From positions 672,001 to 736,000 of the forward strand of contig CBDEFO010000007.1 in assembly GCA_965237525.1 (NCBI GenBank): a DNA stretch of 64,000 nt, given 5' to 3'. The notes under the pieces were generated by a model. The model saw only the letters and a program-made list of their open reading frames with translations. It did no database searches and was not told the DNA's origin. How positions within the stretch are numbered: the first letter of the stretch is position 1; every line of letters begins with the position of its first letter. The stretch is from Candidatus Latescibacterota bacterium. GTDB lineage: Bacteria; Latescibacterota; CBDEFO01. Below, one piece after another: positions 10,948 to 38,392 of this stretch. A program made the translations under genes and the position numbers.

Positions 10948-13900
10948 ATGAGAAAAATGCTCATATTTCCGGCTCTGCTCCTTGTAATACTATCCTTCGG
11001 GGCGGATGTTCAAGCACAACAAAATAGTAAGTACGTTGAACATCAAGTGATTGTTAAGATGAGTGAAAAGATTCAAGCAGCGGATATCGTTAGTATGAGA
11101 GAGAACCTTAATGCTTCAGTGCTCAAGAAATTATGGATCGTTGACGCTGAACTTTGGGAAACACCGGGAATTACCGTGGAAGATGCTATCTATCAATACC
11201 GTAATGACCCTCGTATCGAATATATTGAGCCGAACTATCGTGTCTGGGCTGTGGAAACTATCCCGAACGATAGCAGCTTTTCTCAGCTTTGGGGATTGCA
11301 CAATACTGGGCAGACAGGCGGAACATCCGATGCGGACATCAATGCTGTTGACGCCTGGGATATTCAGACTGGCACTGATGTCTTAATAGGCGTCATAGAT
11401 ACAGGCGTAGACTGGACGCACGAAGAACTTGCGGATAATATCTGGACTAATCCGGGAGAGATCCCAGATAACGGTATTGATGATGATGGAAACGGTTACA
11501 TCGATGACGTCAGAGGATGGGACTTTGTAAACAAGGATAATGATCCTATGGACGACAACGGTCACGGAACTCACGTAGCCGGGACCATTGCTGCTGTCGG
11601 AAATAATGGAATAGGCGTTGTTGGAGTCTCTTGGTCGGCACAAATAATGCCACTTAAGTTTTTGGGAGCCGATGGTTCTGGAATTACCTCCGATGCGATT
11701 TTAGCTATAGAATATGCGATGATGATGAGCGCAAAATTAACTAACAATAGTTGGGGTAGCAGTGGATTTTCCCAGGCTTTATATAATGCGATTGCTGTTT
11801 CAGGGAACGCTAACATCCTCTTCATAGCCGCCGCAGGAAATGGAGGTGATGATAATATCGGAGATGATAATGATCAGGACCCTCACTACCCTTCCAGCTA
11901 CGATTTGGACAATATCATTTCCGTTGCCTCCACGAATCATAACGATGCTAAATCTTCCTTTTCCAACTTCGGCTTTACGTCAGTCGATCTGGGCGCTCCG
12001 GGCTCAAGTATTCTCAGCACCGTGCCAGGAGATACCTACAGCTTTCTCAGCGGGACCTCTATGGCGACGCCACATGTGTCCGGCGCTGCCGCTTTGATTT
12101 GGGCTCAATATCCAGATCTGACGAATCTTCAGGTCAAGAATAGGATTGTGAGCACTGTAGATCCGATCCCTGCGTTAGATGGCAGATCGGTTACAGGTGG
12201 AAGACTGAATGCCTTTGTTGCATTAGCAGAACCGGATAGTATCCCACCGGCTGCCGTGACCGATTTAGCCGCAGCAGACCCGACCTCAAATTCTATAACG
12301 CTTACATGGACAGCCAGCGGGGATGACAGCGCCTTCGGCACATCAGCGTATTATGATATCCGATATGCAACCTCTCCGATCGATTCCGGGAATTTTGATT
12401 TGGCTACTGAAGTTTTGAACGAACCGGATCCTCAAGAGACTGGTTCTTTGGAGACGTTCACAACAGGTGGACTAGGTTTCAATACGACCTACTATTTTGC
12501 CCTGAGAGTTTTTGATGAGCAGGGGAATGGGTCAAAAGTTTCTAACTCGCCATCGGCTGCGACGTTGGGCAAACCTGATATCTCAGTTACACCGGATTCT
12601 CTGAGCGATAGTCTGCTCACAGCAAGCACATCCACTCAAATCCTTACTATATACAATGTAGGAGAGGGAACGTTAGACTTTACTTTTCCGGATTTTGCTT
12701 CTGCCGCTTTATTAAACACGCCAGGGATTGAAAGGAACGATGTCTCAAGTCGTTTTGAACATTTAGGACTCGAAAAGGGGCTGACAGATCTGCGAGAGGG
12801 GAATCCCCTCATTTTAGGAGCAGGAGGCCCAGATGGCTTTGGCTATCGGTGGATCGATAGCGATGAACCGGGTGGACCCATCTTTAACTGGATTGAAATA
12901 TCGAAAGTCGGGACACCGATATTGTTACTTGATGATGATGTTGAGGAAGTCACTCTGCCTTTTACCTTTCCGTTTTATGGAGAAGCAAAGACAACCCTCA
13001 AGATCTCGTCGAATGGCTATCTTACGTTTGGTGCAGATGGGACAGATTTCTCAAATGATCCTATTCCAGATCCTGTTGATCCCAATGACTTAATTGCGCC
13101 ATTTTGGGACGATTTGAATCCGAGCGCTGACGACACTATCTTTTACTATCACGACACTGATCAGAATCGATTTATTGTGCAGTACACTGGGCTTCCTCAC
13201 TATAGCGCTGGAGGTCCCTACACCTTCCAAGTTATCCTCTACACTGATGGCAGTATGCTCTTTCAGTATCTGGATATGCTTCCTCCTTTGGATAGTGCCA
13301 CGATAGGTGTCGAAAACCGAGATGCTTCCGATGGCTTACAAGTAGCTCTTAACACAGACTTTATCCATGATAGTCTCGCCGTTAGTGTCTCAGCTATTCC
13401 TCAATGGTTAAGCCTTAATCCTGTATCTGGCACTGTTCTACCGGGTTCATCGGTGGACATTGCTGTGAACTTCGATGCAACAGGTTTGAACGGCGGCAAT
13501 TATGATGCGCATATTGTGATTGCCAGCAACGATCCGGATGAGCCACAGGTACGAGTTCCTGCGCATCTGCATGTGACAGGCGTGCCGGATATTGCTGTTT
13601 CTGCTGATACTTTGGATTATGGCTTTGCCCTCATTGGAGCATCTGTCGACGATACGCTGATTGTCTCGAATATAGGGACCGATACATTGACGGTGAGCAG
13701 CATTGCATCGGATAATCCAAATTATACCGTAGATTTGACCGGTCTTAGATTAGCTCCCGGAGAAAGTCAGGAGGCGTTGGTAAGTTTTGCGCCGGTAGAT
13801 ACAGGAATAAGTAGCGGGACATTGACGATAACAAGTGATGTTCCGGATGCACCCATGGTGACTGTGACGCTAACTGGCGAGGGATTAATTGCGCCGAATA

Positions 13901-16018
13901 TTTCTGTTTCTCCAGATTCGTTAAGTGCAGATTTGCGAACTGGAGAGACATCGACACAGTTATTGACAATCAAGAACACCGGTGGCAGTGATTTGAATCT
14001 TGATATCTCGATTGAAGGAGTGGCAGCTGCTTCAGTGTCGGTAGAAGTTCGTTCCAGGAGTTTCGAGCGAAGATTAACTATTCAATTGCAGGATAATCCA
14101 CAAAAGGAATGGAGCGACTATCGGCAAATTCGTCAGGTAAAGACGGCGATGAAGAAGCTACCTCTCGAGCAAGATGCTCTGAGAATGTCGCTTCCTGTTG
14201 TGATAGAGGATCCTGTTGGTGATGGCGGCGTTGTTGACGTAACCGTTCTACGAGGCGCCAGTACATCGAACGAACTTCAGATCGAGATGGAATTTAATAC
14301 AGAAATTGATCCATTCGAATTTGGCGGTTTTCTTTCACTTGACGTAGATCAAAACCCCAGTACAGGTCTTCCTCCAAGTTTCGGGATCGCTGGACAAGAT
14401 ATCGGTGCAGAATATGAATTTCGGTTTTTCACAGTTAGCAGCGGTTTTGTGGGACTTTATGATGTCATATCAGGTTTTGTAGGTGCCTATCCTGTTGAAG
14501 TTGGGATATATACCTTGCGTTTTTCTGCACCGCTGTCTGATATTGGCAATGATGATGGAAACATGGATGTCACGGGAGCTATAGGAGACGTATTTGGCCC
14601 TACGGATTGGCTCCCAGATGCAGGTCATGGAACTATCAGTGGTGTCAGTTGGTTGTCAGTAACGCCTACCATGGACACTGTGCCAGCGAGTTCATCGGTG
14701 GATGTTGGAGTGGCCTTCGATGCCGCACATCTTAATGGTGGCGATTATGATGCACATATTGTGATTGCCAGCAACGATCCGGATGAGCCAGAAGTTCGAG
14801 TTCCTGCATATCTGCATGTAAGGGAAAATAGCTCGCCCGGCTCCTTTACCCGATTACTCCCTGCAGATAGCAGTCTTGTCCTGGCTCAAGCCGTAATCTT
14901 CCGCTGGACGGCGGCTCCCGATGTGGATACGATTATCTATTCGCTGTCCATCAGCGTAAATAGGATCGATATGACCTTCACCATAGAAGACACGACACTG
15001 ACGATTGATTTCCAGACGTTCGGCTTGCCGAACGATCGGCTTCCGGTGACGTGGTCGGTGCTCGCCTCCGACGGCATCTTGACCTCGTCGCCGACCAACG
15101 GCGACGGACACTTCACGCTGAACAACCTCTTCCTGTTCGGCGATCCTTCGGGCAACGGTTCAATCACCGCTTTTGATGCGACATTGGTGCTGCGGCACTC
15201 CGTGGGGCTTTTCACGCTGGCAGGCAGTGCCGCGGTGGCCTCGGATGTCTCCGGCAATGGCCTGATTAGTGCTTTTGATGCCTCCTCGATCCTGCAGTAC
15301 GTCGTCGGGCTCATCGACTGCTTTCCTGTCGATCCGGGCTGTGGGACACCACTGGCTAAGAGGACAAGCGTTAGAGGTACACTCGGCTGGTCTGATGTCA
15401 GATCGGTCGATCTTTCCGAACTTGTTAGTCTGCCTATCCTCTGGAGCGGAGAAGTAGGAAGGGTTACTTCAGCGCAGTTAACCGTCCACATAGACCCGAT
15501 GCAGGCTGCAGTTGAAAAAGTAGTCGCTCATGTACCTCAAGACTGGCAGTTGGTCTATAGCGTGGGGGACAGTGCGCTGTATGTGGCGATGGCCGGTGTG
15601 ACCCCGATCTCGGTCGGCGAGCTGGTGACCATTACAGTGCAGGTGCACGATCCAGTGGCGCAGGTGACGCTGCACGGCACGGGGTTTGTGAATGAAAGTG
15701 TCACAGGAACTCGGCGTGGTGACGATCGGTCAGGTGCCGACAGAATACGCGCTGGAGCAAAACTTCCCAAACCCATTCAACCTCACCACACAGATTATGT
15801 ATCAGTTGCCAGAGGCTTCGGAGGTACACCTGGTCATCTACGACCTGTTGGGTCAAAAGGTCCGGACTCTGGTGAACACCCAACAGGCACCAGGGTTCTA
15901 TAGAGTCCAGTGGGACGGACAAAATGACGCAGGTGTGGATGTCGCAGCAGGTGTCTATCTGTATCGAATCCGGGCTAAGCACTACCAACAGACGAGGAAG
16001 ATGTTGCTGTTGAAATAA
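10948..16018 (+). CDS. Secreted multidomain S8 (subtilisin-like) serine peptidase with a frameshift before the C-terminal FlgD/T9SS-like domain
   Basis: Signal peptide and prodomain, catalytic triad IDTG / HGTHVAG / GTSMATPH, FN3, Ig-like repeats, dockerin-like GDPSGNG/SDVSGNG and cohesin-like domains. The C-terminal domain (YALEQNFPNPFN...RKMLLLK) lies in another frame (15692..16018). Confidence 0.9.
13405..14820 (+). repeat. Intragenic duplication of about 170 bp (approx. 13405-13575 and 14650-14820)
   Basis: Both copies encode GG(N/D)YDAHIVIASNDPDEP(Q/E)VRVPA(H/Y)LHV with near-identical DNA. Confidence 0.8.
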
Positions 16019-23652: not shown

Positions 23653-24468
23653 ATGGATGATCAGGTATTCAAAGTGCTTGTCCCGTTGATTTATGGGATG
23701 AGTTCTATTCTCTACGTAGTAAATTTTGCCGAGAAGAACAAGGGTGTGGGAAGGTTCGCGACCGGACTTTTGTACGTGGGATGGGCAGTTCATATCACCT
23801 TCTTGGCCATAAGGGCAACAGCTTCTGGCCACATTCCGTTTGCAAGCTTAGGCGAAGCTCTGTCAATTTGCGCCTGGATGGTCTGCTCAGTGTATATGTA
23901 TCTGGAATTCAGCAGCAAGGACAGATCGTTGGGGGCTTTCCTCATCCCTGTGGCGACGCTTATGCAGACTGCGGGTTCAGTGATGATAAAGGGAGTAGCT
24001 CCTCTGCCAGAGAATTTGAGCAGTGGATGGTTTGAAACGCATGTAGCTGCCTCTCTTGTAGCGTATACGGCGTTTGCAATTTCGTGTATGAGTTCCATTA
24101 TGTACATATTTCTGTTCGACGAGATTCACGCCAAGCATCTGGGTTTCTTCTACAAGAGATTGCCCCCTTTGGCCACTTTAGATCATATAAATTACAGAGC
24201 GGCGATGACGGGCTTCTGGTTTATGACTTTAGGCATTATGTCAGGGTCGCTGTGGGCATCCAGCGCCTGGGAGGGCTTCTGGCAGTGGGACATCAAGCTT
24301 ATAAGCTCGTTTGCAATATGGATCCTGTACGGGGTCCATCTGTTCGGGAGGATGACCGCAGGATGGCAGGGCAAAAGGGCTGCTCATCTTTCTATTGCAG
24401 GCTTTGTCCTTGTCCTGTTTACATTTTCGGTGACGAGTATATTACCTGTGGGAAAACATGTTTTCTAA
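23653..24468 (+). CDS. ccsA: Cytochrome c assembly / HemX-like membrane protein (CcsA family)
   Basis: Tryptophan-rich motif GSLWASSAWEGFWQWDIK, GWQGKRAA, multi-TM, and position upstream of hemA. Confidence 0.82.
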   Translation: MDDQVFKVLVPLIYGMSSILYVVNFAEKNKGVGRFATGLLYVGWAVHITFLAIRATASGHIPFASLGEALSICAWMVCSVYMYLEFSSKDRSLGAFLIPVATLMQTAGSVMIKGVAPLPENLSSGWFETHVAASLVAYTAFAISCMSSIMYIFLFDEIHAKHLGFFYKRLPPLATLDHINYRAAMTGFWFMTLGIMSGSLWASSAWEGFWQWDIKLISSFAIWILYGVHLFGRMTAGWQGKRAAHLSIAGFVLVLFTFSVTSILPVGKHVF

Positions 24469-24516
24469 GCAAGTAGATAATAGTCAGTAGACAGGAGAAT
24501 CGCCTTGCTCTGCACC

Positions 24517-24625
24517 GGATTGCTTCGCTTCCCCGATCCCCGATAGACTCAATCGGGGACTTGCAATGACATTGTCTGTCTTTAGCCCTTTGTCATTGCA
24601 AAGGGCACATTCCCGAAGGAATCTC
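24517..24625. repeat. REP-like inverted pair (GATTGCTTCG...GCAATGAC / GTCATTGC...GAAGGAATCTC) with a nested 21-bp hairpin at 24538-24558
   Basis: The same motifs recur at about 4317-4457, 26878-26952, 42627-42770, 43547-43675, 46064-46262, 51443-51580, 55850-55972 and 56111-56155. Confidence 0.8.
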
Positions 24626-24676
24626 ACTATCTAACGTATTCTGTTTAGTTATTTGCATAAACTGGAGAAATTATTT

Positions 24677-25552
24677 GTGGAACGTAATATAAATTTAACT
24701 GTAAATGGCGAGATTTTCAATATAGATATTGATGATGAAAGGAGCCTCGTATCGGTCTTGAGGGACGATTTAGGCTTCAGAGAGGTTAAGCAGGAATGCG
24801 ACGACGGCTCGTGCCGTTCCTGCACTGTGATGATGGGCAAAGAGGTGGTGCGACCACTCCGTGCGGTAAAGTCATGCACTATCAAGGCTGTGGAGGCTGA
24901 TGGAACAAAGATCGAGACAGAAAAACTCTATTATCCTATGTTCGTGGATATTATGGGCAGAAGGTGTCTTGTGGTAGGAGGAGGAGAGGTGGCGTGCAGG
25001 AAGGTTGAGGCTATTGTGAAGTACGGAGCAAAAGTGCACGTAATCAGCCCTGAGTTTAACGAAGAGATGGAGAGGATGATAGAGGATAGAGTGGTGACTG
25101 CGGAAAAGAGAGAGTTTAAAAGGGGCGATCTTGATGGGTTCTTTCTGGTGATAGGGGCAACGGATGACAACAGTGTGAACAGAGAGATCTACGCCGAGGC
25201 TGAGGAGAGAGGGATTTTGTGCAATATTGTGGATGTGCCTCCTCTATGCGGCTTTATAGTGCCCTCAATTGCAAAGAGAGGAGCGCTCCAGATAGCTATC
25301 TCTACCGCAGGCAAGAGCCCTGCATTTTCGAGGACCCTGAGGCAGAAGTTTGAAGAGGAGTTTGGGGATGAGTACGCCCAGTTTTTAGAGGTTATGGGTG
25401 GATTGAGAGAGGTTCTGAAGGATAAGTACCCTGAAGATGAGAACAAACGCAAAGAGATCTTTGAACGTCTTGTAAGGTCTGATCTTTTGGATTCCATAAG
25501 GATCAAGGATGAGGAAAGGATTCAGGAGATATTGTCGGAATGCACATCTTAG
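24677..25552 (+). CDS. Precorrin-2 dehydrogenase/sirohydrochlorin ferrochelatase (SirC/CysG-N) with a fused N-terminal CoxS-like [2Fe-2S] domain
   Basis: The N-terminus VNGE...VLRDDLG...CDDGSCRSCTV...SC...EADG is followed in frame by YYPMFVDIMGRRCLVVGGGEVACRK, CNIVDVPPLCGFIVPS and ISTAGKSP. GGAG RBS before GTG 24677. Confidence 0.88.
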   Translation: MERNINLTVNGEIFNIDIDDERSLVSVLRDDLGFREVKQECDDGSCRSCTVMMGKEVVRPLRAVKSCTIKAVEADGTKIETEKLYYPMFVDIMGRRCLVVGGGEVACRKVEAIVKYGAKVHVISPEFNEEMERMIEDRVVTAEKREFKRGDLDGFFLVIGATDDNSVNREIYAEAEERGILCNIVDVPPLCGFIVPSIAKRGALQIAISTAGKSPAFSRTLRQKFEEEFGDEYAQFLEVMGGLREVLKDKYPEDENKRKEIFERLVRSDLLDSIRIKDEERIQEILSECTS

Positions 25553-26838
25553 CTGTAGGTTTGAGCCATCACACGGCTCCTGTGGAGATAAGGGATAAGG
25601 TGGCGTTTCTGCCACACGGCTTGGACGAATCTTTAGGGGCTTTGAAGTCTCAGGAAGATTTCAAGGAGTCCTTGATCTTATCTACGTGCAACAGGAGCGA
25701 GCTTTACGCTGTGTGTGAAGATGCCGGGTCGGGTCGGGAGCGTCTCTTTTCGTTCTTTTCGGACTTTCACAATGTGGATCTGGAGGAGTTAAAGCCGTAT
25801 CTGTTCTGCCTTGTAGATGGTGAAGCGATAAGGCACACGTTTTCGGTGGCGTGCGGATTGCAGTCTATGGTTATGGGCGAACCGCAGATCGCAGGCCAGG
25901 TGAAGGAAGCGCATCAAAGGGCGATGGAGCGAAAGACTACAGAAGTGCTGCTGAATCGCCTCTTTATGGCTGCAGCTGAGGTGTCGAAGAGGGCAAGGAC
26001 TGAAACCAGGATAAGTGAGGGACCGGTGTCTGTCAGCTTTGCGGCTGTCGAGCTTGCAAAGAAGGTATTCGACCGCCTGGAAGGTAGAACAGCTCTCTTG
26101 ATAGGGGCAGGTGAGATGGCAGAGCTTACGGCTATTCATCTTTCCTCAAACGGGATAAGTTCGATTATTATAGCCAGCAGGACCCTGGAGCGGGCATCTC
26201 AATTAGCGCGGAGAATCGGAGGGAAGCCCGTAGCTTTTCAGGAGCGCATAAACTATCTGGATAAGGCTGATATAGTGGTGAGTTCGACGAGCGCGCCTTA
26301 CTACGTGCTGGGAGCAGATGACGTAGCTCGTGTGATGAGGAGGAGAAATAACAATCCGATATTTTTCATTGACATAGCTGTGCCGAGGGATATTGACCCG
26401 GAAATTGGGAATCTGTATAATGTGTTCTTGTACAATATAGACGATATAGAATCTGTTGTGTCTGATAATTTGATGAAGCGGCAGGAGGAGGCACAGAAGG
26501 CAAGGGTTATCATAGATGAGGAACTTGAAAAATTCCTCTCGTGGTGGGGTTCTTTAGATGTCGTTCCTACTATTAAGTCTTTGAGGGAGAAGTTTCAAAA
26601 GGAGCTTGACATGGAATTGAATCGTCTAAAATCAAAGATGGACAATCTATCTGATGAGCAAAAGGACATTGTCCTTATGCTTATGAGAGGTTACATGAAT
26701 AAGCTTTTGCATTCTCCGACTACAAGGCTAAAAGAGGCAGTAAATTCCGACGACGGCTTGGAGTATGTAAGCTCAATAAGGTATCTTTTCGATCTGGATT
26801 CGGAGCCCAAGCACAAAAAAGTAGACAGCAAGCAGTAG
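25540..26838 (+). CDS. hemA: Glutamyl-tRNA reductase
   Basis: Motifs GLSHHTAPVEIR, LSTCNRSE, GEPQIAGQVK, IGAGEMA and DIAVPRDID. Confidence 0.97.
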   Translation: MHILAVGLSHHTAPVEIRDKVAFLPHGLDESLGALKSQEDFKESLILSTCNRSELYAVCEDAGSGRERLFSFFSDFHNVDLEELKPYLFCLVDGEAIRHTFSVACGLQSMVMGEPQIAGQVKEAHQRAMERKTTEVLLNRLFMAAAEVSKRARTETRISEGPVSVSFAAVELAKKVFDRLEGRTALLIGAGEMAELTAIHLSSNGISSIIIASRTLERASQLARRIGGKPVAFQERINYLDKADIVVSSTSAPYYVLGADDVARVMRRRNNNPIFFIDIAVPRDIDPEIGNLYNVFLYNIDDIESVVSDNLMKRQEEAQKARVIIDEELEKFLSWWGSLDVVPTIKSLREKFQKELDMELNRLKSKMDNLSDEQKDIVLMLMRGYMNKLLHSPTTRLKEAVNSDDGLEYVSSIRYLFDLDSEPKHKKVDSKQ

Positions 26839-27053: not shown

Positions 27054-28028
27054 ATGCGAATACATAGAAGAAGACAGATTATTATAGGAACAAGGGGCAG
27101 CAGGTTAGCTCTGTGGCAGTCGGGGTTTGTCAGGGATCTTCTCAAGGATAAGTTCCGAAAGCTTGACGTGGAACTGAAGGTGATAAAGACAAAAGGCGAT
27201 AAAATTCTGGACGCTCCACTGTCGAAGATAGGTAGGAAGGGCGTGTTTACAAGAGAGATCGAAAATGAGCTTCTAAGCGGAGATATAGATATAGCTGTGC
27301 ACAGCATGAAGGATCTTCCGACGGAGCTGCCTGAAGGCCTGAGCGTAGGAGCTATACCTAAGAGGGATGACGTAAGGGATGTCCTAGTATCCAGAGATAG
27401 AGTGGGTCTCCGCCAGCTTGCTGGCGGTTCAAAAATAGGGACGAGCAGTCTCAGGAGGCGGGCTCAGCTTGCAAATTTGAGAAACGATCTCGACTTTGCG
27501 GACATAAGGGGGAATATAGATACGCGTTTGAAGAAATTAGATTACGGGGACTACGACGCACTCATCCTGGCTTCTGCGGGCCTGGAGAGGATGGGCTGGA
27601 AAGATAAGATAACGGAGTATATATCTCCGCAGATATGCCTTCCGGCTCCGGGCCAGGGGGCATTAGGCGTGGAGATCCGCCAGGATGACAGGCGGGTTTT
27701 GGAGTTCGTATCTGTCCTTGGAGATGAGGACACAAGACTCGTGGTCGAGGCCGAAAGGGAATTTCTGCGGGGACTGGGAGGAGGATGTCAAGTACCAATC
27801 GGCGCCTGGGGGAGAATAGAGGATGACAGCCTCTGCCTTGAGGGTGTGGTCGCGCTTTTGGACGGCAGTAAACTGCTCAGGGAGAAGGTAGTTGAGGGCA
27901 AATCGGACGCCGGTGGGACAGGCAAAAAGTTAGCGGATATACTCATAGAAAAAGGCGCTGATAGAATACTGGAAAGTGTGCTGACAGAGGCGGAGCGTCC
28001 TCCTCAGAACGCTTCAGAGACTGTCTAA
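27054..28028 (+). CDS. hemC: Hydroxymethylbilane synthase
   Basis: Motifs IGTRGSRLALWQ, AVHSMKDLP, GTSSLRR and GGCQVPIG. Confidence 0.98.
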   Translation: MRIHRRRQIIIGTRGSRLALWQSGFVRDLLKDKFRKLDVELKVIKTKGDKILDAPLSKIGRKGVFTREIENELLSGDIDIAVHSMKDLPTELPEGLSVGAIPKRDDVRDVLVSRDRVGLRQLAGGSKIGTSSLRRRAQLANLRNDLDFADIRGNIDTRLKKLDYGDYDALILASAGLERMGWKDKITEYISPQICLPAPGQGALGVEIRQDDRRVLEFVSVLGDEDTRLVVEAEREFLRGLGGGCQVPIGAWGRIEDDSLCLEGVVALLDGSKLLREKVVEGKSDAGGTGKKLADILIEKGADRILESVLTEAERPPQNASETV

Positions 28029-28086: not shown

Positions 28087-28923
28087 GTGAAACTGAGCTC
28101 AGTAACTTTTACATGGCCTCTCCTGCCCATGGACGGGGCGGCTGCGATCTTGAGTCTCTTGGGCTTTGAATACGTGGACATCTCCGGCTACACAGATGCC
28201 CCGTTTGAGACGATTACGCCGTGGCAGATCTCCGACGATCCGGACGGCGCGAAGGCAAAGGTGAATGCCATGCAAATGGAGCATGGACTTCAGCCGGCAG
28301 ACTACTTTTTCAGTTTCGGTGAGGGCTTTAGGGGGTCTCCGGTGAATCACCCGGACCCTCACGTGCGAAAGAGGAACCGGGAGACGTTTGAGAATGTCGT
28401 CTCTTTTTGCAAGGATCTCGGCTTTTCTCACATCACTCTCCTGCCGGGAGCTATCTGGAATGACCTGGGACCTGAACGATCGCTCGAACTTTCGGCTGAG
28501 GGACTAAGCGAAATTGTGGCTATCGGAGGTGAAGCAGGCATCCCGGTCGGAATCGAGCCACACTGGGAGTCCGTAGTTGAGACCATCGAAAGGACACAGC
28601 GTCTCTTACAGATGGTGAACGGCCTGACGCTGACTTTAGATTACACCCATTTTATCGCTCAGGGCGTCGAGCAGTCCGAAGTGGATGTCCTTGCTCCTCA
28701 CGCCTCTCACTTTCACGCACGGCAGGGCGCGCCCGGACATGTCCAGATGGGAATGGACGACGGGACGCTGGACTATGAGCAGATTATGCAGGTCTTAAAA
28801 GGAGCGGGCTACGACGGCTTTCTGACGCTGGAGCACACCTACCAGGAGTGGAAGAGCTGCTATAAGACGGAGAACATCTCTGAGACAATGCGTCTGGCTG
28901 ATCAGTTGAGGGAATTGATCTAA
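28087..28923 (+). CDS. Sugar phosphate isomerase/epimerase (xylose isomerase-like TIM barrel)
   Basis: Metal-site motifs GIEPH, LDYTH, HFHAR and YDGFLTLEH. Confidence 0.82.
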   Translation: MKLSSVTFTWPLLPMDGAAAILSLLGFEYVDISGYTDAPFETITPWQISDDPDGAKAKVNAMQMEHGLQPADYFFSFGEGFRGSPVNHPDPHVRKRNRETFENVVSFCKDLGFSHITLLPGAIWNDLGPERSLELSAEGLSEIVAIGGEAGIPVGIEPHWESVVETIERTQRLLQMVNGLTLTLDYTHFIAQGVEQSEVDVLAPHASHFHARQGAPGHVQMGMDDGTLDYEQIMQVLKGAGYDGFLTLEHTYQEWKSCYKTENISETMRLADQLRELI

Positions 28924-28927
28924 AGCT

Positions 28928-30472
28928 ATGAGCAGGGCAAAGGTCTATCTAGTCGGCGGTGGTCCGGGTGACCCGGGTCTGATCACACTGAAGGGATTGG
29001 ACTGCATTAAGAAGGCCGACGTTTTAGTATACGATTATTTAGTTGACGGGAGGCTCGTGGATGAGGCTGGAGAAGATTGTGAGAGGGTGTACGTGGGTAA
29101 GAAGGCGGGAGAGCATACTCTAAGGCAGGAGGAGATAAACGATCTCCTTGTGGAAAGGGCGAAAAAAGGCAAAGTGGTGGTCAGGTTGAAGGGAGGTGAT
29201 CCCTTTGTGTTCGGTCGAGGTGGAGAGGAGGCTTTAGCTCTGTCTGAGGCGGGCGTTGAGTTTGAAGTAGTCCCCGGCGTGACTGCGGCTGTCGCCGCTC
29301 CCGCTTATGCGGGGATTCCCCTGACGCACAGGGGACTGACTTCGACGCTGGCTCTGATTACGGGACATGAAGATCCCACAAAGGAAGGGTCGGATATAGA
29401 TTGGAGCAGTATTTCTACGGGGATTGGAACTCTGGTCTTTTTTATGGGTGTGGGGAATCTTCCCGGCATAGTCAAGAAATTGGTGGAGAACGGCAGATCT
29501 CAAGATACACCTGTGGCTCTGATCAGGTGGGGGACCAAGCCCTGTCAGATGACGGTTGTGGGATCTTTGAGGAATATTGTAGAGAAGGTCGAGTCGCACG
29601 ATCTGAAGCCCCCTGCGGTTATTGTCGTAGGGGACGTTGTGAAGCTGAGAGAAAATCTGAACTGGTTTGAAAACAAGCCTCTGTTCGGAATGAGGATACT
29701 GGTCACACGTTCGAGGGATCAGGCAAGCGAACTCTCCAGAAGACTCGAGGATTTCGGGGCTCTCGCCATGGAGTTTCCCACGATAAGTATAAAAGAGCCT
29801 CATGATTGGAGGCCGCTGGATAACGCTATAAGGAAGATCGTTTCTTTCGACTGGATCGTCTTTACCAGCGCAAATGGCGCCGACAAGTTCTTCCTTCGTT
29901 TCTTTCAGTTGGGAGGAGATATTCGAAAGTTGGGGGGGATCAAGATATGCGCTATAGGCCCGGCGTCAGCAGAGAGAATAGAGAGATGCTATATAAAGGT
30001 CGACCTTCTGCCCGAGTCTAATACCTCTGAGTCTGTAGTCTCGGCTTTTGGGAAAATAGGGAATATCTCCGGGCTGAAGTTTCTGCTGCCGAGGGCAGAT
30101 ATAGCGGGGGATCTCCTCCCTGATGGTCTGAGAAAAATGGGAGCAGATGTGATGGACATTGTAGCTTACAGGAATGTAAAACCGGATAGGGGAGATGATA
30201 GGGTTTTAGAAATGTTGGAAGATGGAAAAGTGGACATGATGACGTTCGCAAGTTCGTCCACTGTGAGGAATTTTGCAGATATTATTGGTAAAGAACGGTT
30301 TAAGCATGTTATGAATAATGTGAAAGTGGCGTCTATTGGCCCCGTGACATCCAGAACTATACTGGGATGGGGAGGAAAGATCGATATCGAGGCGGATGAA
30401 AATAATATCACTATACCAGGCTTAGTTGACGCTATAGTCTCTTATTATTCACGATTACAAGCAGACACGTGA
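28928..30472 (+). CDS. cobA: Fused uroporphyrinogen-III C-methyltransferase / uroporphyrinogen-III synthase (CobA-HemD)
   Basis: VYLVGGGPGDPGLIT and RLKGGDPFVFGRGGEE, followed by the HemD motifs ILVTRS, FTSANG, FASSSTV and SIGPVTS. Confidence 0.95.
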   Translation: MSRAKVYLVGGGPGDPGLITLKGLDCIKKADVLVYDYLVDGRLVDEAGEDCERVYVGKKAGEHTLRQEEINDLLVERAKKGKVVVRLKGGDPFVFGRGGEEALALSEAGVEFEVVPGVTAAVAAPAYAGIPLTHRGLTSTLALITGHEDPTKEGSDIDWSSISTGIGTLVFFMGVGNLPGIVKKLVENGRSQDTPVALIRWGTKPCQMTVVGSLRNIVEKVESHDLKPPAVIVVGDVVKLRENLNWFENKPLFGMRILVTRSRDQASELSRRLEDFGALAMEFPTISIKEPHDWRPLDNAIRKIVSFDWIVFTSANGADKFFLRFFQLGGDIRKLGGIKICAIGPASAERIERCYIKVDLLPESNTSESVVSAFGKIGNISGLKFLLPRADIAGDLLPDGLRKMGADVMDIVAYRNVKPDRGDDRVLEMLEDGKVDMMTFASSSTVRNFADIIGKERFKHVMNNVKVASIGPVTSRTILGWGGKIDIEADENNITIPGLVDAIVSYYSRLQADT

Positions 30473-37023: not shown

Positions 37024-37895
37024 GTGAAAGAGTTTGAGTATTTCAGACCGAATACCATAGAGGAGGCAATAGAGATTCTGAGCCAATGGGGAGAAGGGGC
37101 GGTGGTGTTTGCGGGCGGGACAGATCTCCTCGTCAGGATGAAGGATAGGCACTTAACGCCCAAGTGTCTGGTAGATATCAAGGGGATTCCAGGATTAGAT
37201 ATTATCAAATACGATGAAAATGAAGGACTTACCTTGGGATCTATGGTATCTTTCAGGGATATAGAGAAGTCTGAGGTGATCAGCAGGCACTACCCGATAT
37301 TGGTTCAGGGCGCCGAGTTGTGGGGTCTTTTCAGATAAGGAACAGAGGGAGCATAGGTGGGAATCTGTGCAACGCCGCTCCGTCTGCGGACATCGCTCCT
37401 CCCTTGATAGTGCTCGGGGCTGTGGCCCATATAGCGGGACCGGAAGGTGAAAAATCAATGCTTGTAGAGGAGTTCTTCCTGGGACCGGGGAAGACTGCGC
37501 TTGCAAACAACGAGATACTTTTGAGATTGACTGTACCTCCTTCCGTAAAAAGAGGCGGCGCCTATATGAGACATACGACACGGGAGGCCATGGACATAGC
37601 TGTCGTGGGCGTGGGAGCAATAGTCCAACTTGGAGAGGATAACGACGTGTGCAAAGACAGTAAGATATGTCTGGGCGCTGTGGCTCCTGTTCCGATGAGG
37701 GCCCACAATGCAGAGGGGATACTCAAGGGAAAAGAAATTACGGATGAGTTAGTAGAAGAGGCAGCTCAGGCGGCGTCGGACGAATCGAAGCCCATAACTG
37801 ATGTGAGGGGGACAGCCCAGTTCAGAAGGGAATTAGTAAGGGCGTTGGCAAGCAGGATGGTCACGAAGGCGATTGATGACGCAAAATCGCGGTAG
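37024..37895 (+). pseudogene. Xanthine/CO dehydrogenase family FAD-binding subunit (CoxM/CutM-like), frameshifted near 37315
   Basis: FAGGTDL is in frame 37024..37338 and GSFQIRNRGSIGGNLCNAAPSAD is in frame 37320..37895. A single-base loss would join them. Could be a sequencing error. Confidence 0.8.
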
Positions 37896-37909: not shown

Positions 37910-38392
37910 GTGAAGCTTCACGTAAGTATGATCGTAAATAGCGAAGATTATGAGGTCGAAGTGGAGCCCAGAAAGGTGCTGCTCACGGTTTTGAGGGACT
38001 ACTTGGGGCTAATAGGGACCAAGGAGGGGTGCGGGACAGGAGACTGCGGGGCGTGCACGGTCATTATGAACGGCCAGACGGTCAATTCGTGTCTTGTGTT
38101 AGGAGTTGAGGCTGACGGAGCAAATATTGTGACCATAGAAGGAATTGCTACGAGCGAAGGACTGAGTCCAGCGCAAGAGGCGATAGTGAAGTTCGGAGGG
38201 ATTCAGTGCGGGTTCTGCACACCGGGGATAATTGTGTCGGCCAAGGCTCTTTTGGATGAAAATCCCGATCCGAACGAGGAAGAGATCAGGAAAGGAATTG
38301 CCGGGAATCTATGCAGGTGCACGGGGTACAGTAAGATCGTCGAAGCGATTCAGGATGCCGCAAGACTTAGAGTTGAGACGATAAAGACTTAG
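37910..38392 (+). CDS. Xanthine/CO dehydrogenase family [2Fe-2S] subunit (CoxS/CutS-like)
   Basis: Motifs GTKEGCGTGDCGACTV, QCGFCTPG and GNLCRCTGY. Confidence 0.93.
   Translation: MKLHVSMIVNSEDYEVEVEPRKVLLTVLRDYLGLIGTKEGCGTGDCGACTVIMNGQTVNSCLVLGVEADGANIVTIEGIATSEGLSPAQEAIVKFGGIQCGFCTPGIIVSAKALLDENPDPNEEEIRKGIAGNLCRCTGYSKIVEAIQDAARLRVETIKT

Follow-up and report, generated by a model that had tools for sequence, protein, structure and literature searches.

A genuine in-frame fusion joins a CoxS-type [2Fe-2S] ferredoxin domain (Fer2) to an enzyme of the precorrin-2 dehydrogenase/sirohydrochlorin ferrochelatase type in a Candidatus Latescibacterota bacterium. The gene lies in a stretch of 64,000 nucleotides (contig CBDEFO010000007.1, positions 672,001 to 736,000 of the forward strand), here called the window, to which bare coordinates refer. 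Within the databases searched, the fusion is found only in one genus. By analogy with other iron-inserting enzymes, the Fer2 domain is tentatively read as a non-catalytic accessory [2Fe-2S] module on the siroheme enzyme, with a probability of roughly 0.45.

The fused gene and its surroundings

A single open frame without stops runs along the forward strand from 24653 to 25552, in the gene order ccsA, fusion, hemA, hemC, TIM-barrel gene and cobA/hemD. The features of the locus, and the evidence by which each was assigned, are as follows.

23653..24468, forward strand: ccsA-type cytochrome c assembly gene, the upstream neighbour (Pfam Cytochrom_C_asm)
24469..24675, no strand: spacer with a repeated palindromic element (sequence, BLAST)
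24664..24668, forward strand: putative ribosome-binding site GGAGA, 8 bases 5' of the GTG at 24677 (sequence, pairing energy)
24677..25552, forward strand: fused gene of 291 aa, Fer2 domain plus precorrin-2 dehydrogenase/sirohydrochlorin ferrochelatase (Pfam, NCBIfam, counterpart at 92% in a second genome)
24677..24919, forward strand: CoxS-type N-terminal [2Fe-2S] ferredoxin-like domain, residues 1-81 (Pfam Fer2, alignment with 27 CoxS N-domains, model)
24845..24862, forward strand: 18-bp repeat GTGGTGCGACCACTCCGT, an in-frame insert (genome-wide copies, QueA and CoxS comparison)
24920..25552, forward strand: CysG-B/Met8p-type dehydrogenase/ferrochelatase module (Pfam, TIGR01470, residue mapping on CysG)
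25540..26838, forward strand: hemA, glutamyl-tRNA reductase, overlapping the end of the fused gene (TIGR01035 over cut-off)
27054..28028, forward strand: hemC (TIGR00212 over cut-off)
28928..30472, forward strand: cobA-hemD fusion, making the substrate precorrin-2 (TIGR01469 over cut-off, Pfam HEM4)
37910..38392, forward strand: ordinary two-domain CoxS, the comparison homologue (Pfam, pairwise match, tree)

The fused protein matches the Pfam models Fer2 (26.7 bits, cut-off 21), NAD_binding_7 (124.5) and Sirohm_synth_M (38.1). Its enzyme part matches the NCBIfam model TIGR01470 (cysG_Nterm) at 167 against a cut-off of 62.3, and its front part matches CoxS-type subunit models only, each under its cut-off. 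In the N-terminal domain, the PF00111 profile match over cut-off is accompanied by an aligned C-x4-C-x2-C...C pattern. A preliminary description of this DNA had reported a CoxS-type domain running in frame into SirC/CysG-N, with four retained cysteines spaced C-X4-C-X2-C-X17-C. The first point is borne out by Pfam and TIGR01470, and the second by the translation, where the residues are Cys41, Cys46, Cys49 and Cys67 (codons at 24797, 24812, 24821 and 24875, numbered from the GTG at 24677). The overlap with the start of hemA was also correctly described, the stop of the fused gene (25552) and the hemA ATG (25540) sharing 13 bases. Judging from its sequence, the Fer2 domain likely holds a [2Fe-2S] cluster.

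The gene had been given the span 24653..25552, of which the open frame stands and the start does not. Translation most likely begins, as far as the upstream signals indicate, at the GTG at 24677 (pairing energy with the ribosome -6.4) rather than at the TTG at 24653 (+0.5). The GTG is favoured because GGAGA lies upstream, because the recorded protein has 291 aa, and because the DNA of the type found in the second species rejoins the window at 24675. The spacer at 24469-24675, of about 200 bases, carries a palindromic element repeated genome-wide (154 BLAST hits), and DNA of the second type has 37 unrelated bases in its place.

The CoxS alignment of the fused protein stops at T81. The closest unfused homologues start at the position of residue 80, where the fused gene has no start codon (no ATG). 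Downstream, the ATG at codon 88 has no ribosome site, and a start there would split the Y86-P87 pair, which at least 90% of 112 homologues share; the idea that translation starts internally near YYPMF is accordingly not borne out. Strong ribosome-site-like pairing (-11.2) lies upstream of the ATC at codon 79, with GGAGG 14 bases away, and minor internal initiation may occur at this codon. However, the GGAGG is spelled by the CoxS-typical residues V-E-A, and I79 is itself a conserved CoxS column (107 of 120). The enzyme thus seems likely to depend on a start supplied by the Fer2 domain. As the domain holds the only good start site of the gene, the open frame would be kept even if the domain had no function, and is on its own no functional evidence.

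Several other genes of the region show peculiarities of their own. A xylose-isomerase-like TIM-barrel gene (28087-28923) lies between hemC and cobA-hemD in both species. A coxM-like gene (37024-37895) is frameshifted near 37317 in the genome of the window (G000) and near 37428 in the second genome (G001), and no large-subunit gene follows the coxS at 37910; together, these features represent independent decay or assembly errors. The gene of a secreted subtilisin-like protein (10948-16018) is split near 15697 in G000 and forms one 1690-aa frame in G001. At C1:1925600-1926100 of G001 (L039, L044), a coxS stands beside medium- and large-subunit-like genes, with no close counterpart in G000.

Distribution of the fusion and divergence of its ferredoxin domain

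The second genome, G001, is assembled as one contig and comes from a different species within the genus. It carries the whole fused gene at 92% identity, so the fusion is not unique to one assembly. The 90% cluster of the fused protein has four members, all of 291 aa with the four cysteines. The junction is also bridged by contigs in five of the eight sequencing runs examined (X2, X4, X7, X5 and X15), of which X5 may share its source with the best-matching run (same study), X7 is of the G001 type, and X15 is a third variant at low depth; runs X11, X12 and X17 covered enzyme-side pieces only, and no RNA run was among those listed with this DNA. Conservation in relatives, which had been proposed as a check, is therefore found in G001 and in the contigs of these five runs.

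In GTDB, the class consists of G000 and G001, both of the same genus, and a full-length match to the fusion is present in 2 of 41 genomes. A sirC match occurs in 150 of 168 genomes of the phylum, and no fused form was seen in the 148 besides these two. The remaining Fer2 matches in the 168 genomes reach at most 50 bits; 35 of 36 such loci are ordinary two-domain CoxS, and one gave no ORF. At 27 other sirC loci of the phylum, no Fer2 match lies within 1.5 kb. Many of these loci have an unfused sirC with ccsA and hemA still as its neighbours, and the two observations together indicate that the ancestral state was unfused. Since the 148 other genomes have sirC with no fused form seen, the Fer2 domain is, on this comparison, dispensable for sirC chemistry in general.

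No second fusion was found among the best 120 of 6798 protein matches, among the best 150 of 15642 representatives (with Pfam scans of 20 proteins that were long or extended), or among the best 120 of 8000 profile matches. The cysteine motif was absent from all ten N-terminal extensions seen among 256 of 268 homologues. A region search with 2 hits in 14 candidates gave no second fusion, and neither did metagenome contigs, with two loci, one an ordinary CoxS and the other without a clear reading. Of four loci in GTDB contigs, L119 alone is fused, and the ESM Atlas returned only leads under 0.9. These searches would miss a convergent fusion whose SirC part scores below about 158 bits. From this distribution, we infer that the 5' half of a coxS was inserted before sirC once, in this lineage. 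Elsewhere, SirC-type modules are fused to glycosyl-transferase-family-3 domains, HemA or HemD (P0175, P0181, P0253, P0163, P0183, P0268), which shows that the module accepts many partners.

The likeness to the CoxS encoded at 37910, noted earlier, reflects homology (36% over 81 aa, E 9e-17 in a single comparison). A demonstrated donor it is not: equally good or better matches come from other CoxS proteins (up to 44%), and the two do not group in the tree. Instead, the tree gives the Fer2 domain a weak long-branch join to L039, with a stem branch of 1.41. Its mean identity to 27 CoxS N-domains is 39%, whereas each CoxS has 45-63% to the others. Of 32 conserved CoxS columns, 20 are kept and 12 changed. 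The changes T35R, G36E, G40E, G47R and L70K are each seen in 0 of 120 CoxS hits, which come mainly from one subfamily, and G36, G40 and G47, all replaced here, are ligand-adjacent glycines near-invariant in CoxS. The charged fraction of the domain is 0.35, against at most 0.29 in the 120 CoxS N-domains. Non-glycine residues are tolerated at these sites in other Fer2 families, for example as an Arg following the second Cys of NuoG-type domains, and the glycine replacements may mean that contacts to partners were lost and not the cluster.

The best model of the domain has a pLDDT of 78.7, with the cluster loop as its weakest part (56), and the other four models range from 48 to 61. It has a ferredoxin-like (beta-grasp) fold and superposes on CoxS structures with a TM of up to 0.83 (CODH small subunit 1n62_D), a match that is partly circular since a CoxS alignment guided the modelling. 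In the full-length model, pLDDT falls below 50 at residues 46-67, with almost no alignment depth for residues 1-81. The complex predicted between the Fer2 domain and the dimeric enzyme scored 0.16 (mark 0.32); that the enzyme forms a homodimer is itself assumed by analogy with CysG.

The third and fourth cysteines are 11 residues apart in 120 of 120 CoxS hits and 17 in the fusion, because six residues are encoded by GTGGTGCGACCACTCCGT. Copies of this 18-bp repeat at no more than two mismatches number 26 in G000 and 30 in G001, against none in six shuffled controls; among 39 other genomes, 38 have none and one has two. All 26 copies in G000 lie inside ORFs of at least 150 aa, with all six frames represented, some being duplicated regions or possible shadow ORFs. 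In QueA (L153), a copy forms a 6-residue insertion relative to both structures compared. Locus L124 shows a clean 18-base presence/absence against its G000 homologue, and at L130 the gap is untidy. No exact match was found in viral contigs. The copy within the Fer2 domain of G001 differs by two bases, and its presence in both species places the insertion before the split of G000 and G001. The repeat adds six residues to working proteins. It resembles SDR- and REP-like very small repeats in being multi-copy, hairpin-forming, in frame within genes and present or absent between relatives, and differs from them in that its sequence is confined to this genus among the 41 genomes. The SDR elements of Nostocaceae were reportedly described by Elhai and co-workers in 2008 as very small mobile repeats.

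Purifying selection on the domain, another check that had been proposed, left signs in the form of fewer and more conservative changes between G000 and G001. The Fer2 part has a dS of 0.24, a dN of 0.09 and a ratio of 0.37, and the enzyme part a dS of 0.06, a dN of 0.019 and a ratio of 0.31. The background, taken from 81 of 101 ORF pairs in 140 kb, has a pooled dS of 0.105 and a ratio of 0.28, and a dS of 0.24 was reached in 5 of the 81. The excess divergence is concentrated at 24700-24799, with 18 differences in 100 bases. The 27 base changes in the domain caused 13 residue changes where 17-18 were expected (P 0.02-0.04), these changes were more conservative (mean BLOSUM +1.0 versus about -0.35 under neutrality, P 0.0001-0.0003), and the 20 conserved columns that the domain still has were left untouched (P 0.005-0.009); that both species have all four cysteines carries no significance by itself (P about 0.3). 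All these P values come from neutral simulations conditioned on no stop, with two sequences and with tests picked after the data had been seen. The pattern supports selection acting on the protein sequence of the domain, for its fold, and the signal could reflect the need to fold rather than a role of the cluster.

The enzyme module and the siroheme route to heme

The catalytic Asp and Pro of CysG are retained. The D-x-P loop and the proline platform are present as D186 (codon at 25232), P188 and P215 (codon at 25319), corresponding to CysG D104, P106 and P133, and the tetrapyrrole-carboxylate residues are kept as K109, N183, R219, R222, R244, K248 and R258. With G212, this makes 11 of the 14 positions of the CysG substrate site identical; the changed positions are T210, S218 and F262. 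According to PMC7018833, D104 is present in bifunctional enzymes and replaced by Ser in monofunctional SirC. Asp186, found where SirC has Ser, does not fit a monofunctional SirC type. The residue pattern indicates that the enzyme likely carries out the last two steps of siroheme synthesis, as dehydrogenase and ferrochelatase.

Both genomes, with completeness of 96.6% and 98%, have one sirC each and no match to the CbiX, CbiK or ferrochelatase (HemH) families. The DR2241-type Fe-S domain, whose accession we take to be PF18009, was found in neither. Both carry a fused AhbAB over cut-off, a ChdC-family gene and a NirA-family reductase; in G000, the first two lie at C8:1751300-1752316 (L077) and C4:190946-191686 (L102). 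In neither genome were AhbC or AhbD (best scores 72-92 bits versus 500-650) or HemE found, and a URO-D match was rejected as HemE, being an MtaA/CmuA methyltransferase. AhbAB occurs in 13 of the 41 genomes, among which G000 and G001 alone have no AhbC-like match, the other 11 scoring 314-666 bits. Judged by gene content, G000 and G001 possess no known enzyme for the middle step on the way from siroheme to heme. G000 further encodes multi-CxxCH proteins and cytochrome c oxidase-like genes, the latter recognised by eye. It also has a radical SAM gene (L091, C4:35924-39547) that reaches 327 bits against the Tes (tetraether lipid synthase) model, whose cut-off is 450; another copy lies at C7:345061-348684 (L092).

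Because AhbAB and ChdC are present and the other chelatase families absent, iron insertion for siroheme and heme alike likely depends on the fused enzyme alone. The absence of those families also speaks indirectly for the enzyme having both activities. The earlier suggestion that this gene is tied to siroheme, and by way of siroheme to heme, fits the genome, with AhbAB, ChdC and the NirA-family reductase present and other chelatases absent.

Possible roles of the ferredoxin domain and related systems

If the Fer2 domain is an accessory module, the common ancestor of the genus would have acquired the 5' half of a coxS in the gap between ccsA and sirC, where it replaced the start of sirC. The domain would then have diverged fast, losing CoxS family residues and gaining the 18-bp repeat in a loop, and in its remodelled form would now be under selective maintenance. 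Occupancy of the cluster might set the stability or the activity of what is likely the only iron-inserting enzyme of the cell, and tetrapyrrole flux to siroheme and heme would thus track iron, Fe-S supply or oxidative state. Precedents come from chelatases of another class. Plant SirB can catalyse its reaction without its cluster, for which a regulatory function is possible (PMC6006212). The cluster of FECH has been proposed to couple activity to iron (PMC13564367); it is sensitive to NO, and its role in vivo is undefined (PMC13564367, PMC9133952).

Nearly as likely is that the domain is a tolerated passenger, a coxS fragment fixed by chance as the supplier of a start codon and a ribosome site. 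It would stay open and able to fold, with or without a cluster, and do nothing for the enzyme. Its restriction, within the searches made, to one genus would fit such an origin, as would the missing ATG at the ancestral sirC start (residue 80), the 12 changed columns of 32, the identity of 39% against 45-63%, the stem branch of 1.41, and the several unrelated partners to which SirC modules are fused elsewhere. The repeat inserted inside the domain, in a genome with much repeat-driven change, points the same way; however, GTGGTGCGACCACTCCGT also stands in frame in QueA, so the insertion is no mark of a dead domain. The four cysteines and the core columns have survived the long branch and recent changes avoid them, which speaks against a passenger. 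Moreover, a short in-frame deletion could drop a useless domain and keep the start, yet two species and a third variant have it whole where covered. That no real fusion protein exists, either because an assembly joined the pieces or because translation mostly from near the junction gives an enzyme without the domain, is very improbable. The pairing upstream of ATC 79 and the single-base frameshifts nearby in both assemblies, perhaps errors, are compatible with it, but the junction is in frame in two assemblies and in contigs of five runs, the candidate starts at codons 79 and 88 have the defects given above, and the protein sequence of the domain appears to be under selection.

A working role in the chemistry is unlikely. 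Here, the cluster would reduce or hand over iron for sirohydrochlorin in an oxygen-respiring cell, or pass electrons, either to a partner in the siroheme-to-heme route lacking AhbC or to the siroheme-dependent NirA-type reductase, all these variants sharing one low probability. G000 and G001 are the only AhbAB genomes (of 13 in 41) without an AhbC-like match and both have ChdC and the NirA-family reductase, and the charge of the domain (0.35) is what a newly exposed surface might show; but both genomes belong to one lineage, and their co-occurrence amounts to a single event. A lone [2Fe-2S] domain is not known to replace radical-SAM chemistry. It is this chemistry that AhbC performs (PMC13564367). 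An electron relay from the NADH product also appears unlikely. The reason is that NAD+ takes a hydride, and no flavin domain stands between NADH and the cluster.

The fusion could be the first class III (CysG/Met8p-type) chelatase with an iron-sulfur domain of its own, in which a molybdoenzyme-derived ferredoxin supplies electrons or reduced iron for the only step of iron insertion in a bacterium that respires oxygen and forms its entire heme via siroheme without AhbC. This stronger proposal is doubtful. The fusion would be a separate case of a chelatase recruiting a cluster. The way in which CysG/Met8p-type enzymes obtain iron is treated as an open question in PMC7242693 and PMC7018833, and PMC13564367 calls the in vivo role of Fe-S clusters on chelatases undefined. 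A separable ferredoxin domain in a natural fusion permits a clean comparison with and without it, with a reach limited to one genus, which may tell little about the family. The suggestion that this architecture had not been described before agrees with a literature consisting mainly of open-access texts, in the accessible parts of which no description of a Fer2 domain on a CysG-B/Met8p/SirC enzyme was found.

Among known systems, human FECH, some bacterial PpfC and Arabidopsis SirB (class II) share with the fused protein a [2Fe-2S] site on an iron-inserting enzyme and a proposed regulatory role. Class II clusters, on the other hand, are ligated by cysteines that belong to the chelatase itself or to its tail, whereas the fusion has a recruited ferredoxin domain, and the likeness is one of analogy only. 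CoxS/XdhC small subunits (e.g., 4zoh_C and 1n62_D) have an N-terminal Fer2 domain with the four aligned cysteines and 31-44% identity. They differ in holding a second Fer2_2 domain, for which the fused protein has no PF01799 match, and in the motif T-G-x-K-x-G-C (T-G-T-K-E-G) with a Gly after Cys2, which are replaced in the fusion. The fused domain is six residues longer than that of CoxS, and while CoxS/XdhC genes sit with those of the medium and large subunits, the fusion sits between ccsA and hemA in a heme operon.

The closest systems are the class III chelatases, CysG-B from Salmonella and Met8p from yeast. They have the Rossmann fold and the order of domains in common with the fused protein (identity about 33%, Foldseek E 3e-18). 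The fusion keeps the CysG residues K27, N101, D104, P106, G130, P133, R137, R140, R162, K166 and R175. Unlike these enzymes, it has an N-terminal Fer2 domain, a separate cobA-hemD gene for the methyltransferase, and Thr at the site of S128. SirC from Bacillus (Priestia) megaterium (3dfz) has the same fold as the enzyme module, but carries Ser in an SSFS loop where the fused protein has D-V-P-P with Asp186, and works with SirB, whereas no gene of the CbiX/SirB family was found in G000 or G001.
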